Source: an uncultured Granulicella sp. (GTDB taxonomy: Bacteria; Acidobacteriota; Terriglobia; Terriglobales; Acidobacteriaceae). Taken from it: a DNA stretch of 64,000 nt. The notes under the pieces were generated by a model, which searched no databases, was not told the DNA's origin, and saw only the letters and a list, made by a program, of their open reading frames with translations. The DNA lies in NCBI GenBank assembly GCA_965213835.1, contig OZ243923.1, forward strand, positions 1,845,518 through 1,909,517, read 5' to 3'. Numbering within the stretch: the first letter of the stretch is position 1; each line of letters starts with the position of its first letter. Both the position numbers and the translations under genes were made by a program. Of the stretch, positions 58,154-64,000 are shown piece by piece.

Positions 58154-58213
58154 AGAGCAAACAAACGGCCCACCCCCTCGCAGGAATGGACCGTTTCCTC
58201 GCTGCGATCGGCT

Positions 58214-60073
58214 CTATTGTTCGAACGGAACGCTGGCTCCCCACAGGATCGTCGAGCTGGTGGGACCGTTTGCCCCCCACAGGATCGTCGAACTGCTGGT
58301 CCCGGACGCACCCCAAAGGATTGTTGCCGCGGCTGGCGTCCCCGCGCCCCACAGGATGGTGGAACTGTTCAGTGCGGAAAATCCGGAAGGATCGCTTGCG
58401 CCCCAAAGGATGGTCGCACCCCACAGGATCGTCTGCCCGTTGACCGAGCCGACCACCGCGTTCTGCCCATAGACTGCGCCGGCACCCCAGAGAATTGTCG
58501 CCCCCCACAGAATGGTCGAGTCGCCCACCAGCGTCGTCTGCCCGGTCTGCGCGTTGTAGACCGCCACCGGACTCATCGCCGTACCTACCGGGTAACTCTT
58601 GAGAGCGGTCTTGGAAACGTCGGAAATGGTGTTGCCGATGTCCAGGTAGCCCGCGCCGATGGTGAACACGTCATAGTTCGCCTTGTACACGTTGCCGCTC
58701 GCGGGATCGGTCACGCTGGAGGTCAGCGGGAACGTCGTCTTGTTCGCATCCCGCATCAGAAACGCCTTGGTCTGGTCCGGCGTCAGCGCCGGAAAGGCCT
58801 GTAGCATCAGCGCCACTGCCCCGCTGGTCACGCCCGCGGCCATGCTGGTGCCGCTCAGTGGAAAGTAGTTCGGGCTCGCCTGGGAGTTGCCGTTGACCAC
58901 GTAAAACGCATTCTGCGTGATGAAGCTGGGATTGTTGACCGCGAGCGGATCGTTGGCAAACTTGAGGCTCGTGACCAGGTTGCCCGGCGCGACGATATCC
59001 GGCTTGCTGATATTGTCGATAAAGCTCGGCCCCTTGGAGCTGTAGGAGGCGATCTGATCGTCGTTGATCGCAGCCGTACCCATGGTCTTCATCGCGCCCA
59101 CGGTCAGCACGTACGGATCGTTGCCCGGAGCCTCGATCGTGCCGTAGCCTTCGGCGTTCATGTTCAGGTCGCGCCCGGCGTTGCCCGCCGCCGCCACCAC
59201 CACGATGCCCGCCTTCCATGCCTGCTCCGCCGCCTGGCACAGCGGGTCCTGCTGATACGACTCCCAGATCGGACGGCCAAGCGACAGGTTAATCACGCGG
59301 ATGTTGTACTGCTTCTTCAGCGCAATCGCCTGCTCGATGGCCGCGATTACCGCCGAATCCGTGCCGTTGCCGTTCCCATCCAGCACCCGCAGGTTCAGCA
59401 GGTTTGCGTTTGGAGCGACTCCGGAGAAGGTCCGGCTGTACCCATATCCGGACGAATCCGCGCCATTGCCCGCGATCAGCCCCGCCACATGTGTTCCGTG
59501 GCCGAACGCGTCGGCCGTCGTCGTGTCGCCCGGCACAAAGCTCTGGTTGTAGACCACGCGGCTCAATCCGTACGGGCGCCTCAGGTATCGGCCGTACGGC
59601 GGGCCAAGGTCGTCGACCGTGTTGATGCCGCTGTCGATTACGGCCACGCCTACGCCCGTGCCATCGATCCCGGCGTTCCAAACGGGCGCGGCGTTGATCG
59701 GCTCGGTCGTATACTCCGCCGCCGTGACAGTGACCTGCTGGCGCGCCGCCAGCGAGTGGTCGAGCGACACATGCGCAATGTTTGCGTCCGCGGCAAGCGC
59801 CAGCAGCGCGCCGGCCGGCACATGCGCAACGCTGGATCGGATGGAGTGCAGGTGCCTGTGCAGCACGCCGCCCAGGCTGCTCAACCGTTGGTCCTGCACG
59901 CCGCCAGGATCCTGGACATACTGGATAATCACGGGCACGGGCCTGGACGGATCGGCCGCGGCGAGATCGGCGGAAAGCTTGCTCTTCGGCCCGCCGGGGA
60001 ACTGCGCAAGCGCAGCGGCGGGCAGCAGGGAACACATCAGGACGGCAGCAATACGGAACGGGGGAGCATTCAT
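58214..60073 (-). CDS. Secreted S8 (subtilisin) serine protease with C-terminal TILWGA repeats
   Basis: Signal ALA|Q, prodomain, VAVIDSG (D), GHGTHVAG (H), AAGN (oxyanion), GTSMAAG (S). Confidence 0.92.
   Translation of the reverse strand: MNAPPFRIAAVLMCSLLPAAALAQFPGGPKSKLSADLAAADPSRPVPVIIQYVQDPGGVQDQRLSSLGGVLHRHLHSIRSSVAHVPAGALLALAADANIAHVSLDHSLAARQQVTVTAAEYTTEPINAAPVWNAGIDGTGVGVAVIDSGINTVDDLGPPYGRYLRRPYGLSRVVYNQSFVPGDTTTADAFGHGTHVAGLIAGNGADSSGYGYSRTFSGVAPNANLLNLRVLDGNGNGTDSAVIAAIEQAIALKKQYNIRVINLSLGRPIWESYQQDPLCQAAEQAWKAGIVVVAAAGNAGRDLNMNAEGYGTIEAPGNDPYVLTVGAMKTMGTAAINDDQIASYSSKGPSFIDNISKPDIVAPGNLVTSLKFANDPLAVNNPSFITQNAFYVVNGNSQASPNYFPLSGTSMAAGVTSGAVALMLQAFPALTPDQTKAFLMRDANKTTFPLTSSVTDPASGNVYKANYDVFTIGAGYLDIGNTISDVSKTALKSYPVGTAMSPVAVYNAQTGQTTLVGDSTILWGATILWGAGAVYGQNAVVGSVNGQTILWGATILWGASDPSGFSALNSSTILWGAGTPAAATILWGASGTSSSTILWGANGPTSSTILWGASVPFEQ
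58235..58516 (-). repeat. Eight TILWGA hexapeptide repeats
   Basis: Identical at protein level with synonymous codon variation; spacers of 0 to about 17 aa. Confidence 0.95.
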
Positions 60074-60242
60074 GATTAACCTCTGGAGATGAACTGCCTA
60101 CCTCATCGGTGCGGGCCCGGGGTCGTTCGCCGTCTTCTGCTTCCCTGTTGCAAAGCCGCCTGCCCGGACGTGGCAGGAGCGGCAGCTCTGAACTCGGGTC
60201 TGGAGACGGATCGTTCTTCAGTCCGGGTCTGAGACTATCGGG

Positions 60243-60255
60243 AAGTGCCGCACTT
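60243..60255. promoter_or_regulatory. Perfect 6-1-6 palindrome, candidate operator upstream of the S8 gene
   Basis: aagtgc-c-gcactt in the 231-bp intergenic region. Confidence 0.35.
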
Positions 60256-60304
60256 TGTCCTTCCCTAAAAGTTGTAATCGGGGTAACCACCGTGGGACAC
60301 CCGT

Positions 60305-61120
60305 CTACTCGAAAGCGGCATCGTGAAGACGCCTCACCTGACCCGGCTTAACCGGCAGCGCACGCAGCAGCGCGTCGAGCGCCGGCGTGTGCCCCCGGGC
60401 ATCGCTCAGCGAGCCCACGGCCACCTGTTCCACCAGCCGGCCACTGTCCAGCACCGCAAGCTCATCACACAGCTGCAGCACGGAAAGCAGGTCGTGCGAG
60501 ATATACAGGAGCGCGGCCCCGGTAGAGCCGCACATCCGGCTCAGCAAGAGAAGCAGCTCCGCCTGCGTCACCGGGTCGAGCGCGCTGGTGGGCTCATCGG
60601 CGATCAACACCGCCGGCCGGTGCAGAAGCGCCAGCGCGACCAGCACACGCTGCGCCTGCCCCACGCTGATCGCCCCGGGACGCCGCGCCAGGAACTCGGG
60701 ATCCTCCGGCAGCCGAAGCTCCGGCAAAAGCTCTCGCAGCCGTGCCTCCAACGCCGCCGAACCTCCCGCGTCGTGCGCCTTCCAGCTTTCGAGAAAATGC
60801 GCTCGCAGCGAAACCGCCCCGTTCAACGCCGACATCGGGCTTTGCGGCACCAGTGCGATCCTGCGTCCGCGCACGGTGCGTGCCTCCCGCTCCGGCATCC
60901 GCAGCAGGTCCGTGCCTTCCAGCAGCACCTGTCCCCTCGCCCACCCGCCCCGCCAGCCCAGCAGCCCCAGCAGCGCCAGCGCCAGCGTACTCTTGCCGGC
61001 ACCGCTGGACCCCACAAAGCCGAGCGCCTGCCCGGCCCGGAGCTCGAATCGGACCTCATCGAGCACGGTGCGCACGCCATACCCGGCGGAAAGCGCAACC
61101 TGCAGCGGAGCCACGCTCAC
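60305..61120 (-). CDS. Peptide/nickel-family ABC transporter ATP-binding protein
   Basis: GSSGAGKS, ISVGQAQRV, LIADEPTSALD, ISHD; GTG start overlaps the SBP stop (GTGA). Confidence 0.9.
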   Translation of the reverse strand: MSVAPLQVALSAGYGVRTVLDEVRFELRAGQALGFVGSSGAGKSTLALALLGLLGWRGGWARGQVLLEGTDLLRMPEREARTVRGRRIALVPQSPMSALNGAVSLRAHFLESWKAHDAGGSAALEARLRELLPELRLPEDPEFLARRPGAISVGQAQRVLVALALLHRPAVLIADEPTSALDPVTQAELLLLLSRMCGSTGAALLYISHDLLSVLQLCDELAVLDSGRLVEQVAVGSLSDARGHTPALDALLRALPVKPGQVRRLHDAAFE

Positions 61121-62772
61121 CGGCCCGCGTCCACGCGGCGCAGGAACTCGACGTTCCACACCAGGTTCGGCTGCAGAAGCGCTGGCTGCACTCCAAGCAG
61201 CGCCGGAGAAACCGCAACCAGCGGGTCGGGATACACCAGGTAGATATACGGCTGCTGATCGGCCACGATCTGCTGCACCCGGTCCACGGCCTGATGGCGC
61301 ACGCGCGGGTCCAGGCTGGTCGCCTGCAGCTGCATCGCGCGGTCGATCTCCTCCTCCCATGCGGTCTCGGGGCTCTTCTGCGCAGGATCCCACTGGTGAT
61401 CGGGTGACGAACTGAGCCACTCATTCATCATCGAGTTCGGATCGGGATCCGCGTCCGGATGCCCAAGCAGGCACGCCTCGTAGTTGTGCGTATGGCTCAG
61501 GCGCTCAATCAACGCCGGAAAATCCAACGTCACGACCGTGACCTCAATTCCCACCGCGAGGAGGTCCTGCTGGATCAGCACGGCCATCTTCGCCCGGGAG
61601 GCGTTGCCGGCGTTGGTCAGGATGGAAAAGCGCACCGGGTGCCCGCCGCCATCCACCAGGGTTTTGCCTCGCATCTGAAAGCCGGCCTCCCGCAGCAGAC
61701 GAAGCGAGTTCGCCGTGCCTTCAGGCGGCGTGCGCAGCCCCGCGTTATACCAGGCCCGGTTCGCCGGCGAGATAAACCCCGCCGCCACCGTCGCATGCCC
61801 GTCATAGGCGATCCTCGCCAGGTCCGCGCGATCGATCGCCGAGGAGACGGCCACGCGAAATGCCTGCGCCCGAAACCAGGCGCGCTCCCACTCCGGCAGC
61901 GGCGCGTCCGGAGCCTGGTTGAACCACATCTGCTCGGTGTTGAGCGAAGCGCCGAGATCGCGTGCCGTACCGGGTCGTCGCTCGTTCAATACCGCGAACG
62001 AGCCCGGCGACAGATTGTCGATCAGGTCGTACTCCCCCCGCAGAAACCGCAGCAGCTCGGTCTCGCGGTTGCCCAGCACGTCCAGCCGGATCGAAGGGGC
62101 ATACGGAAGCTGCGCGCCGGCGTTGTCGTGCCCCCAGAAATATGGGTTGCGCACAAGCCGCACGAACTGTCCGGGCTGCGCCTCCGCCAGGGTGAACGGG
62201 CCGGAGGTGACGCGCGAAAGCCTCGCTTGCCCGGCCGGCTCGATCGCGATCTCATCGAAGACGTTGGCGATGCCGATTACCCGTCGTGGAAGCAGCACGC
62301 GCAGCGTCCGGGTATCGGGAGTTTCGACCCGCACCTCCGCCGGCGCGAGAAACTCCTCCGCCACCGGAGCCGCCGTCGCAGGCAGCAACACGCGCCGCAG
62401 GGACGCCGCCGCGTCGGCCGAGGATAACGCCGTGCCATCGGAAAACCGAAGACCCGGGCGCAGATTCAGCGTAATCGCTCGCCCATCCGGTGCGATCGTC
62501 CAGCTCTCCGCAAGCGCCGGCTCCGGCTGCATCGTCCTCCGGTTGTACCGGATCAACACCCCTGCCGTGAGCGTTCGCAGCAGCTCGGAGGTTGCGTCCT
62601 CCACCCTGGCGGGGTCCAGCGTGCGCGGGTCGGTGCGGATCGCCCACGCCAGCTCTCCCGGCGGACGCGGCGCGGCCGCCTGCGCACCCGCCACCACCGC
62701 GCCGCGAAGCGCGACAAGCAGAAGAACGAGCTTGAAAACCTTCTTCACTGCAGACGATTTTCGCATGGCCAC
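61117..62772 (-). CDS. ABC transporter substrate-binding protein, family 5 (peptide/nickel)
   Basis: Signal AGA|Q; DPRTLDP, ALAESW, LRPGLRFSDG, SGPF, FRVAVSSAIDR. Confidence 0.9.
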   Translation of the reverse strand: MAMRKSSAVKKVFKLVLLLVALRGAVVAGAQAAAPRPPGELAWAIRTDPRTLDPARVEDATSELLRTLTAGVLIRYNRRTMQPEPALAESWTIAPDGRAITLNLRPGLRFSDGTALSSADAAASLRRVLLPATAAPVAEEFLAPAEVRVETPDTRTLRVLLPRRVIGIANVFDEIAIEPAGQARLSRVTSGPFTLAEAQPGQFVRLVRNPYFWGHDNAGAQLPYAPSIRLDVLGNRETELLRFLRGEYDLIDNLSPGSFAVLNERRPGTARDLGASLNTEQMWFNQAPDAPLPEWERAWFRAQAFRVAVSSAIDRADLARIAYDGHATVAAGFISPANRAWYNAGLRTPPEGTANSLRLLREAGFQMRGKTLVDGGGHPVRFSILTNAGNASRAKMAVLIQQDLLAVGIEVTVVTLDFPALIERLSHTHNYEACLLGHPDADPDPNSMMNEWLSSSPDHQWDPAQKSPETAWEEEIDRAMQLQATSLDPRVRHQAVDRVQQIVADQQPYIYLVYPDPLVAVSPALLGVQPALLQPNLVWNVEFLRRVDAGR

Positions 62773-62811
62773 CCCCTCGCGAATGGTTATCGACCGGGTA
62801 CAGCCTGGGCA

Positions 62812-63621
62812 TCACCCTGCATGCTGCGAGCGGCCGGCCGTCATCGATTCCAGCAGAAACAGCACAGCGACCAGAAGCACGATCGGCAGGTACACCCAGT
62901 GCGTCTGTGCCATCAGCGCGGAGCTGTTGAGCTCGGCCAGCATGCCGCCCCACGAAGGAAGAGGCTCCGGAATCCCCAGGCCCAGGCTCCCGAGATTGCT
63001 TTCCGCCACAACAAACGCCGGCACCGAAACCAGGAATTGCGGCAGCAGCAGCGCACCGAGCCGAGGAAGCACATGAAGACGGACAAGCTGCCCGCGTCGG
63101 AGCCCGGCCGCGCGTCCCTGCAACATCGCGTCCGACCGATCCAGCCTGCGGCTCCCGGCATAGACCGCCCGCGCGCATGCCGGCCAGCCGAGCAGCGCCA
63201 GCAGCGTAAACGCCACGGCAGCCGTGTGCGCCGGCGACGACGTCAACGAAAAGCCGGAGCGCACGATCATCAGCAGAAACAGCCAGGGCAGCGTCAGAAA
63301 CGCATCTGAAAGCAGAAGCAGAGTATCGCGAATCGGACGCGGGCTCGACGCCGCCAACATCCCGATCGCCGCCGCGATCGCCGTCGTCAGCGCCGCGGCC
63401 AGCGTCGCGCCACCGAGCCCAAGCAGCATTGCCGCCGCCGAACGCAGGAGCCGGTCCCGGCCCAGCGCGTCCGTGCCCGCCACGTGCTCCGCAGACGTCC
63501 CCTGCAGGACGGCACCGCGATCCTGCAGCGCCGGATGGCTGCCCGGAAGCAGCACCAGCACGCCGGCTGCGAGCACCAGAAGCAGCAGCAGCACGCCCGC
63601 AGCTTTCTGTCGAAGCCGCAT
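62812..63621 (-). CDS. ABC transporter permease (DppC-like)
   Basis: GTDALGRD, HVLP, ESNLGSLGLG...PSWG; start MRLRQ overlaps the upstream stop. Confidence 0.88.
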   Translation of the reverse strand: MRLRQKAAGVLLLLLVLAAGVLVLLPGSHPALQDRGAVLQGTSAEHVAGTDALGRDRLLRSAAAMLLGLGGATLAAALTTAIAAAIGMLAASSPRPIRDTLLLLSDAFLTLPWLFLLMIVRSGFSLTSSPAHTAAVAFTLLALLGWPACARAVYAGSRRLDRSDAMLQGRAAGLRRGQLVRLHVLPRLGALLLPQFLVSVPAFVVAESNLGSLGLGIPEPLPSWGGMLAELNSSALMAQTHWVYLPIVLLVAVLFLLESMTAGRSQHAG

Positions 63622-64000
63622 CACGCAAGCTCCGGAACTCGAGGCGGTTCGGACAACAACCCCGCCGCGGCCACAAAGGTCGCCAGCAACAACGTCACGG
63701 CGAGCAGCACAGGCAGATCGCGGTTTCCCGCCGCGCTCCACGCCAGCTGTGCTACGCCCGGCAGGTCGAATAACACCTCCACCGGCACCAGCGCACTCAG
63801 CGCGGTCACCACTGAAAGCGTCACCAGCGCACGCATCTGCGGAGCGGCCGCGGGAAAAACGTGGGCCCGCAGCATCCGCCACCAGCCAAGCCCGCCCGCC
63901 CGAGCCTGCAGCAGCGCGGACGACGCCCAAACCTCACGCAGCAGGCGGTCCAGAAACGGAAAGTCCCGAGCCGCCAACACCAGCCCGAGCACCAGAACGG
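63621..64000 (-). CDS. ABC transporter permease (DppB-like), 5' end beyond window
   Basis: ARAGGL.......HV, VEVLFDLPG.AQL, RDLPVL. Confidence 0.85.
   Translation of the reverse strand, partial: VLVLGLVLAARDFPFLDRLLREVWASSALLQARAGGLGWWRMLRAHVFPAAAPQMRALVTLSVVTALSALVPVEVLFDLPGVAQLAWSAAGNRDLPVLLAVTLLLATFVAAAGLLSEPPRVPELA

Follow-up and report, generated by a model that had tools for sequence, protein, structure and literature searches.

Why should a secreted protease end in eight copies of one hexapeptide, and does this ending have any connection with the transporter encoded beside it? The question is raised by a stretch of 64,000 nucleotides (nt) from an uncultured Granulicella sp. (contig OZ243923.1, positions 1,845,518 to 1,909,517; hereafter the window), in which the reverse-strand open reading frame (ORF) 58214-60073 encodes an exported and intact subtilase of peptidase family S8 with 619 residues, present as a single copy in the genome. 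An earlier sequence-only reading had proposed that this protease excises peptides from its own tail and that an adjacent ATP-binding cassette (ABC) importer takes them up again as a signal. Judged from sequence comparison, the tail is a large, previously undescribed repeat family on subtilases. Moreover, the tailed protease, the importer and a MASE9-type enzyme of cyclic di-GMP (c-di-GMP) turnover, encoded just past the window edge, very probably work together.

A repeat family on subtilases

The repeat tail comprises residues 515-619 (58217-58531, on the reverse strand, as are all window features given below) and has no match to a Pfam family or to a PDB sequence. Eight exact TILWGA units, together with degenerate ones such as AVYG and AVVG, lie within these final 105 residues, separated by spacers of 0-16 residues. 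The units occupy residues 520-525 (58499-58516, ACCATTCTGTGGGGGGCG), 526-531 (58481-58498, ACAATTCTCTGGGGTGCC), 548-553 (58415-58432, ACGATCCTGTGGGGTGCG), 554-559 (58397-58414, ACCATCCTTTGGGGCGCA), 572-577 (58343-58360, ACCATCCTGTGGGGCGCG), 584-589 (58307-58324, ACAATCCTTTGGGGTGCG), 596-601 (58271-58288, ACGATCCTGTGGGGGGCA) and 608-613 (58235-58252, ACGATCCTGTGGGGAGCC). All eight 18-nt strings are distinct, in agreement with the earlier observation of identical hexapeptides encoded by differing synonymous codons.

A region-restricted search returned 36 S8 proteins whose tails are of this type. Between these orthologues the core varies (TILWGA, TVLWGA, TALWGA, TPLWGT, ALWGR), while some spacer elements stay put. 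The spacers had been described as free; they are indeed variable inside the window protein, but the elements NVYGxNAF, NDPxGF and GTPxAAT are conserved position-specifically between orthologues. We then retrieved 76 loci from a set of 301 genomes of the class (Terriglobia) and extracted their tails, using a tail search at E ≤ 1e-5. WG-tailed S8 genes occur in 44 of the 301 genomes, representing 36 of 131 genera, with one to nine copies per genome. The family tail is an array of xxxxWG hexapeptides followed by a small or charged residue, in which only the W-G pair is invariant; units are near-identical inside one protein and differ between proteins (NAVWGT, QSVWGN, TTVWGE, EALWGS, QAVWGD, SLIWGR, TALWGK). 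At least 597 relatives were confirmed among GTDB species genomes and at least 592 among metagenomes. The taxa among the matches listed include Granulicella, Terriglobus, Edaphobacter, Terracidiphilus, Ca. Sulfotelmatobacter and Bryobacterales, and at least one carrier of the family, Granulicella aggregans M8UP14, is in culture.

When 81 tails are aligned, a common scaffold emerges in which a linker hairpin is followed by about three WG units, a break of the form xNV[FY]..G, two further units, a second break (..GF.) and two more units. Most of these tails end in ...I.GE[NQK], and lineage-specific expansions have been added onto the scaffold. When the tail alone was compared by phmmer with 1.84 billion representative sequences, nearly all of the 65 matches were S8 fragments, so that the repeat was not found on other enzyme classes. 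Three long non-S8 matches (P0058, P0066 and P0084) were considered as tail relatives and rejected as unrelated repeat proteins. A literature search yielded a description of the MASE9 domain only, and none of a W-G repeat tail on subtilases or of the gene module described below.

Is the identity of the units inside one protein simply a trace of recent duplication? For 42 arrays that each contain four or more units of identical amino-acid sequence, we set the DNA differences among these units against the expectation for codons drawn at random from the usage of the same gene's catalytic domain. The mean pairwise difference is 3.22 per 18 nt compared to 3.74 expected, a ratio of 0.86. DNA-identical units were found in few arrays only (L031, DDIAWG, with 0.0 differences; L022 with 1.4). 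Such near-random synonymous divergence shows that unit identity is kept by purifying selection, and not by recent duplication, gene conversion or slippage.

Two variants of the tail deserve mention. In two S8 paralogues of genome G050 (L069, from 11597 onward, and L075) the tryptophan is lost, and about ten or more SSSVLG hexapeptides stand in place of the xxxxWG units, with a few normal WG units on the flanks. In the S8 fragment P0073 and the protein P0052, the repeats read NIVWGT or DNIVWGS and the spacers are acidic or contain Cys; judging from these two sequences, the tail type may reach beyond the Terriglobia.

Structure of the protease and its tail

The catalytic domain (residues 138-446; 58736-59662) belongs to peptidase family S8, with a match to Pfam PF00082 at E = 2e-52 and 178.6 bits against a cut-off of 21.8. 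Triad residues D147, H192 and S410, in the order D-H-S, and the oxyanion-hole residue N298 are invariant across 32 homologues. The closest solved structure by sequence is Tk-SP (PDB code 3afg; E = 1e-36). At the N-terminus, a Sec-type signal peptide, MNAPPFRIAAVLMCSLLPAAALA (residues 1-23; 60005-60073), was read from the sequence, with probable cleavage after ALA; it is modelled with a predicted local distance difference test score (pLDDT) below 50. The following residues ~24-118 (59720-60004) form a putative N-terminal propeptide, which has no Pfam match and is assigned by its position and its predicted I9-like β-α-β pattern. Within it, AlphaFold2 models residues 45-104 as a confident β-α-β arrangement (pLDDT 83-95), with strands at 45-52, 70-75, 80-86 and 99-104 and helices at 58-66 and 87-94. 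The ORF, the Pfam match, the AlphaFold2 model and the 32-homologue alignment all support the earlier description of an intact S8 protease with signal peptide, prodomain and D/H/S triad. Between the catalytic domain and the tail lies a linker (residues 447-514; 58532-58735) containing a β-hairpin (..GAGYLD..TAMSPVAVYN..TG..TLV), conserved in the 81 tails and modelled with pLDDT 67-89.

The repeats themselves did not yield a confident fold, helix or solenoid in either of two AlphaFold2 runs. With the full-length protein and a 32-sequence alignment, the catalytic core was confident and residues 517-619 had pLDDT values of 23-34; with the tail only and 81 sequences, the linker hairpin was modelled and the repeats reached 34-55. 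Profile searches of the tail against Pfam, NCBIfam and the PDB gave chance matches only (Pericardin and Collagen repeats, below cut-off). The Pfam Hexapep family has the consensus [LIV]-[GAED]-x2-[STAV]-x and adopts a left-handed β-helix fold; no Hexapep match at E ≤ 1 was obtained for eight tails, perfect arrays included, and neither AlphaFold2 run produced a solenoid. The lack of a predicted fold is consistent with disorder, and a fold that depends on assembly, or one that the method has not learned, is also possible.

Coupling to an importer and a c-di-GMP enzyme

The protease gene is the last of six, arranged in the order MASE9/HD-GYP/GAF/GGDEF enzyme, two ABC permeases, family-5 substrate-binding protein (SBP), ABC ATPase and WG-tailed S8 protease. 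The first of these genes lies just beyond base 64000, where an ORF of 885 residues has a stop codon that overlaps the start of the first permease gene. Its product contains HD_5 (E = 1e-43), GAF_2 (E = 1e-12) and GGDEF (E = 1e-34) domains, with the motifs HD347, GYP408, GGDEF791 and the I-site RSFD782 all intact. By this domain order and these motifs it is a MASE9-HD-GYP-GAF-GGDEF enzyme, although MASE9 itself scores 20.9 bits, just below the cut-off of 24.3; in the homologue at L006, MASE9 was matched without being marked as weak. This architecture has been named by Galperin and Chou, who proposed that MASE9 binds a ligand within the membrane (bioRxiv 10.1101/2021.11.05.467447). The sequence-only reading had suggested that an HD-GYP/GGDEF sensor might lie beyond position 64000; such a gene is found there, and its coupling is conserved in other genomes.

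The same block was found in unrelated flanks at L001, L002 and L008. Around P0004 and P0022 the six-gene order is identical and the flanks differ. At P0033 the ABC genes accompany the S8 gene and the contig ends upstream; at P0031 the c-di-GMP gene lies directly upstream of the S8 gene, with no ABC genes; and near P0017 and P0015 neither is present. To quantify the linkage, we searched with the six locus proteins by tblastn for module genes within 10 kb of a WG-tailed S8 gene in three samples of loci. Module genes were present at 44 of 86 loci in the class sample (both ABC and c-di-GMP genes at 25, c-di-GMP only at 14, ABC only at 5), at 49 of 80 in the GTDB species sample (24, 17 and 8, respectively) and at 39 of 80 on metagenome contigs, which are often short (11, 14 and 14). 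Lineages differ in gene order, with colinear arrangements, others divergent from the c-di-GMP gene and still others convergent, a variety which argues that adjacency is functional rather than merely inherited. The sequence-only reading had named a lack of linkage between the ABC operon and WG-repeat S8 genes in other genomes among the findings that would refute it, and this linkage was found in all three samples.

In genome G010, of a different family, L087:13538-19900 contains an S8 gene with a degenerate WG tail, followed directly by the c-di-GMP enzyme and then by permease B and permease C, with the SBP gene 10 kb upstream. This S8 protein was missed by the tail search at E ≤ 1e-5, and the linkage counts are therefore lower bounds.

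Co-occurrence was analysed by searching the 301 genomes with the SBP, for which an orthologue tier at or above 424 bits is separated from all other matches, at or below 362 bits. Orthologues are present in 32 genomes (three partial matches counted), and 30 of these also hold a tailed S8 gene. With 2 genomes holding the SBP only, 14 the tailed S8 only and 255 neither, Fisher's exact test gives p = 2.7e-28, a value that is inflated by relatedness; the co-occurrence with this SBP clade that the earlier reading had envisaged is evident. Of the listed genomes that belong to the same genus as the window, just two (G000 and G261) hold the SBP or a tailed S8, and each holds both. As to the two SBP-only genomes, G074 has the ABC genes alone. 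In G152, an EAL-type protein (ending in ...EYGQGYLFSKAV) precedes the ABC operon at L089:4877-7078 on the forward strand, and the contig carries no tailed S8 gene; the same importer here has a different c-di-GMP partner.

Some c-di-GMP genes depart from the intact form. Among the nearest relatives, the gene of G261 (C1:3363770-3366292) has in-frame stop codons, and in G145 (C2:7168-9096) and G181 (C1:3009244-3011157) the enzyme ends after about 660 residues, without GGDEF. In the latter two genomes the tails, too, are the shortest and comprise four WG units.

Covariation of the unit end with two module proteins

If the tail is read by its partners, changes in the unit might be matched by changes in these proteins. 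We compared every alignment column of the six proteins with the class of the residue that follows W-G, using 26 close colinear clusters. On the SBP tree, this residue is Lys or Arg in three distinct clades, which corresponds to three changes there and four on the S8 tree. Strong associations were found for SBP column 47, which is R46 in the motif ELAWxI[R]YDPKTLDP (association 0.91), and for column 125 of the GGDEF protein, where the window's enzyme has G115 as part of the MASE9 loop GMKVxxPx[G]DGT (association 1.0). In the control proteins (ATPase, both permeases and the S8 catalytic domain) the best of 1096 scored columns reached 0.69-0.78.

SBP position 46 is Arg, Lys or His at 32 of 37 loci with a neutral or acidic unit end, and Gly, Asn or Ser at all 16 loci with a Lys or Arg end. 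In the close clade, the MASE9 loop position is Gly in 12/12 neutral-end loci and Ser or Thr in 13/13 loci with a Lys or Arg end. In an independent metagenome sample, the SBP residue is basic at 14 of the 15 loci whose unit end is small and neutral. Taken from the alignments, these patterns suggest charge or size complementarity between the unit end and the SBP and MASE9 residues. The earlier reading had proposed a test for covariation between repeat and SBP; a single suggestive site was found in the SBP, in addition to the one in the MASE9 loop, and both were identified post hoc. Covariation of unit positions 2-4 with the c-di-GMP enzyme at loci with the GGDEF gene only was set aside, since the presence of two paralogous enzyme lineages confounded the comparison.

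A possible mechanism and its alternatives

How might these parts act together? The protease would be exported via its signal peptide and matured via its propeptide. Its apparently unstructured tail of identical short units (here TILWGA) would then be cut, most plausibly by the protease itself, because I-L-W|G-A fits the preference of subtilisin, which generally favours a large hydrophobic residue at P1 and a small one at P1'. The released Trp-containing peptides would be bound by the SBP and imported, sensed by MASE9, or both. The peptide would then shift the balance between c-di-GMP synthesis by the GGDEF domain and breakdown by the HD-GYP domain, and the GAF domain may serve as a sensor in the cytoplasm.

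That the tail units are the module's ligand, or the source of it, falls just short of an even call. This reading accounts jointly for the selected identity of the units, the absent predicted fold and the covariation of two sites, all of which are established along with the anatomy of the protein and the conserved linkage, and also for the protein-specific unit sequences and the tight co-occurrence with the SBP. Its most complete form, a self-contained device of the Terriglobia in which the protease carries a multi-copy pheromone, releases it by autoproteolysis and has the hexapeptide read by a matched SBP and importer and by MASE9 to change c-di-GMP, is a tentative proposal that we regard as possible, if on balance doubtful.

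Several points weigh against a ligand role for the tail. The SBP reaches no curated NCBIfam cut-off, and binders of nickel, opines and oligosaccharides are among its best solved relatives. Nearly half of the class sample of family members, 42 of 86, are orphans without a nearby module, and none of the 7-9 paralogues in G050 and G283 lies beside one. Conversely, the GGDEF enzyme family is present in more than 20 genomes that have no tailed S8 gene. The covariation was found post hoc and comprises about three transitions, of which the strongly supported branches force at least two only; a threshold of 0.8 selects 3 of 1470 columns in the SBP and GGDEF proteins compared to 0 of 1514 in the controls, which is not statistically decisive. 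In addition, the SBP and MASE9 residues at two QTALWGQ loci remain in the Gly/Ser states of the Lys/Arg class. Cleavage of the tail, a peptide ligand of the SBP and the direction of the c-di-GMP response are steps that we infer.

The conserved tail scaffold, with some seven ancestral WG positions, two fixed breaks and, in most of the 81 tails, the ...I.GE[NQK] end, also counts against a ligand role, as it fits a folded or assembling domain. This leads to the alternative that survives best, in which the tail is no ligand and serves as a structural element of a nutritional module. Here a repetitive β-structure, a self-assembling stalk or a surface- or polymer-binding strip with a Trp ladder would anchor the protease to the cell envelope or to a substrate. 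The protease would degrade proteins from the environment, the importer would take up the products as food, and the c-di-GMP enzyme would couple feeding to lifestyle. Array architecture is stable between congeneric species (L029/L033, L070/L072 and L012/L013), as one would expect of such an element, and the many orphan paralogues far from any module agree with it as well. Stacked repeats, as is generally known from β-solenoids, can favour identical ladder residues, and proteases are commonly paired with peptide importers for nutrition. However, AlphaFold2 returned no fold with either alignment, and neither repeat models nor the PDB provided a match, even for perfect arrays. A structural role also leaves unexplained why apparently surface-exposed positions are identical at saturated synonymous divergence, why SBP and MASE9 residues track the unit end, and why the SBP is nearly confined to genomes with a tailed S8 gene. 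We therefore consider this explanation unlikely as it stands, albeit a serious competitor to the ligand reading.

A second alternative, which we judge improbable, regards the tail as a C-terminal pro-region, a removable extension that aids export across the outer membrane or blocks the active site with substrate-like repeats and is degraded on activation without any signalling. Subtilases of the aqualysin I type are known to lose C-terminal extensions after secretion, the resemblance of ILW|GA to a subtilisin cleavage site would suit such a fate, and no tail fold is predicted. Yet a pro-region predicts neither the linkage with the SBP importer and the c-di-GMP enzyme nor the covariation, and does not explain why protein-specific units are held identical by selection. 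Finally, low-complexity tails are common and the units of L031 (DDIAWG) and L022 are identical or nearly so in their DNA, but a coincidental neighbourhood with a neutral repeat expanded by slippage is hardly credible, being contradicted by the near-saturated synonymous divergence, by linkage in three samples and several gene orders, and by the co-occurrence statistics.

Comparison with known systems

In the RRNPP systems of Firmicutes, such as Phr/Rap and PapR/PlcR, subtilisin, Epr or Vpr matures the exported pro-peptides, which Opp then brings back into the cell. The module resembles these systems in that an extracellular S8 protease, a family-5 SBP importer and an intracellular signalling protein are encoded together, and in that short hydrophobic peptides would be the signal. 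It differs in having no separate pro-peptide gene, since the eight candidate units are on the protease itself, and no tetratricopeptide repeat (TPR) receptor; a scan of the six module genes revealed no such receptor, and the locus contains no micro-ORF with the motif. The output of the module is a membrane MASE9/HD-GYP/GAF/GGDEF enzyme, the host is a diderm acidobacterium, and the release and import of the peptide are putative.

Tandem near-identical cores separated by spacers and served by an S8 processing enzyme are also known from yeast α-factor with Kex2, from fungal Kex2 repeat peptides such as the ustiloxin precursor, and from the cyanobactin precursor PatE with PatA/PatG. In these cases, however, precursor and protease are separate and the flanks of the cores are conserved (KR, or GLEAS/AYDG), whereas W-G is the only conserved flank observed here. 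The module cluster also contains no modification enzymes. The protease is also not of the PatA/PatG class, with 32.2 bits for TIGR03895 against a cut-off of 421 and with no precursor or heterocyclase gene at the locus.

With regard to its domain order, the protein is similar to Tk-SP from Thermococcus kodakarensis (3afg) and to aqualysin I, which likewise have a signal peptide, an N-terminal propeptide, an S8 core and a C-terminal extension. Their extensions are folded β-jelly-roll or pro-domains, in contrast to a W-G hexapeptide array without predicted fold. Autotransporter subtilases of the SSP type have a C-terminal β-barrel translocator of ~250-300 residues. The window protein does not belong to this class, as its tail of 105 residues has no Pfam autotransporter match and its C-terminus reads VPFEQ and does not end in an aromatic residue.

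Genetic coupling of an SBP to a membrane c-di-GMP enzyme is known from NspS-MbaA of Vibrio cholerae. NspS is a non-transporting SBP of the polyamine type, while the module here has a complete importer, a family-5 SBP, a MASE9 sensor and a protease. Compared to the architecture of Galperin and Chou, the domain order is the same; their description includes no ligand or gene partner, whereas an ABC importer and a WG protease are coupled to the enzyme here. In its logic the module is closest to RRNPP signalling and is also similar to the multi-copy precursors cut by S8 enzymes; it is a member of neither group.

The block is conserved across many Acidobacteria and points to an undescribed, testable peptide-sensing circuit. 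Few soil bacteria are as abundant as Acidobacteria, and to our knowledge almost nothing has been reported on how they sense each other or their surroundings. The locus offers a genetically tractable module of protease, importer and c-di-GMP enzyme, with synthesizable candidate ligands in the form of TILWGA-type peptides and candidate specificity residues in SBP R46 and MASE9 G115. If the tail is the source of a signal, the module would represent a new architecture of peptide signalling, with a precursor fused to its own processing enzyme. It would also provide the first ligand for MASE9 and the first peptide-based cell-cell signal of Acidobacteria, and the diversity of units between species and paralogues would be pherotype-like. 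If the tail is structural, it would still be a new Trp-ladder repeat, and its strict identity within each protein would need explaining.

Importer genes, flanking regions and small ORFs

The importer is encoded by four genes. Permease B (285 residues; 63621-64000, running on to window-equivalent position 64478 according to the ORFs of the extended locus L010) and permease C (269 residues; 62812-63621) both match PF00528, and the start of the latter overlaps the stop codon of the former. The SBP (61117-62772) has a signal peptide and matches PF00496 (E = 3e-63); its residue R46 is encoded at 62635-62637. The ATPase (271 residues; 60305-61120) matches PF00005 and is NikD/OppD-like, although below all curated cut-offs; its GTG start at 61120, which was chosen in view of homologue lengths of 272-303 residues, overlaps the SBP stop codon. 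With PF00496, PF00528 twice and PF00005, the genes encode a family-5 SBP-dependent ABC importer of the Opp/Dpp/Nik type with a single ATPase gene. A narrower assignment to the Opp/Dpp peptide importers is not supported by NCBIfam, where the SBP reached no equivalog, with 100 bits against 393 for NikA, 55 against 650 for Opp4A and 44 against 1005 for DppA. The SBP is far from all solved structures, the closest being of mixed substrate at E ~1e-19.

The importer had been described as lying immediately upstream of the S8 gene. It is on the same strand, but a spacer of 231 nt (60074-60304) separates the S8 gene from the ATPase gene, while overlaps link the five upstream genes. The corresponding spacer measures 128-326 nt in 24 of 25 colinear loci and 784 nt in L094. 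The spacer of the window probably holds the S8 gene's own control region. It has no Rfam match at E ≤ 1, no structured leader by folding (z = +0.98, no better than shuffled sequence) and no WG micro-ORF, and a candidate sigma-54 site upstream of the S8 gene, read by eye, was rejected for its wrong spacing. Spacers are poorly conserved overall; however, words resembling GGTTAC plus TTACAACTT, then G..CAT.G, recur at L001, L011, L013, L096, L101, L103, L113, L116 and L117, and these may represent a promoter or operator through which the protease gene is controlled separately. On the other side of the S8 gene, a consensus scan revealed a terminator-like hairpin directly 3' of the stop codon (58163-58196), with a stem of 15 pairs followed by GTTTGCTCTT.

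No micro-ORF bearing the motif was found in ~52000-70500 (window coordinates) or in the regions flanking the S8 gene. At other loci, WG mini-ORFs occur within 300 nt downstream of the S8 gene in 3 of 85 cases, with only L064 convincing. There, an ORF of 11 codons (L064:7925-7958, reverse strand), MRSASALVWGS, starts at the S8 stop codon and contains one W-G unit that resembles the QAVWGD of the tail. Two loci of genome G288 (L019 and L053) share a mini-ORF of 29 codons, (P/L)VLWAGDGGL...EDSPAGL, 115-120 nt past the S8 stop codons, which may represent either a genuine small gene or an intergenic element present in more than one copy.

Upstream of the c-di-GMP gene lie unrelated genes for acetate kinase and phosphoketolase. 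The latter (XFP; L010:6840-9265, reverse strand, window-equivalent ~68322-70747) is present as two overlapping ORFs, one with XFP_N and half of XFP and the other with the second half and XFP_C, which suggests a frameshift or a sequencing error.

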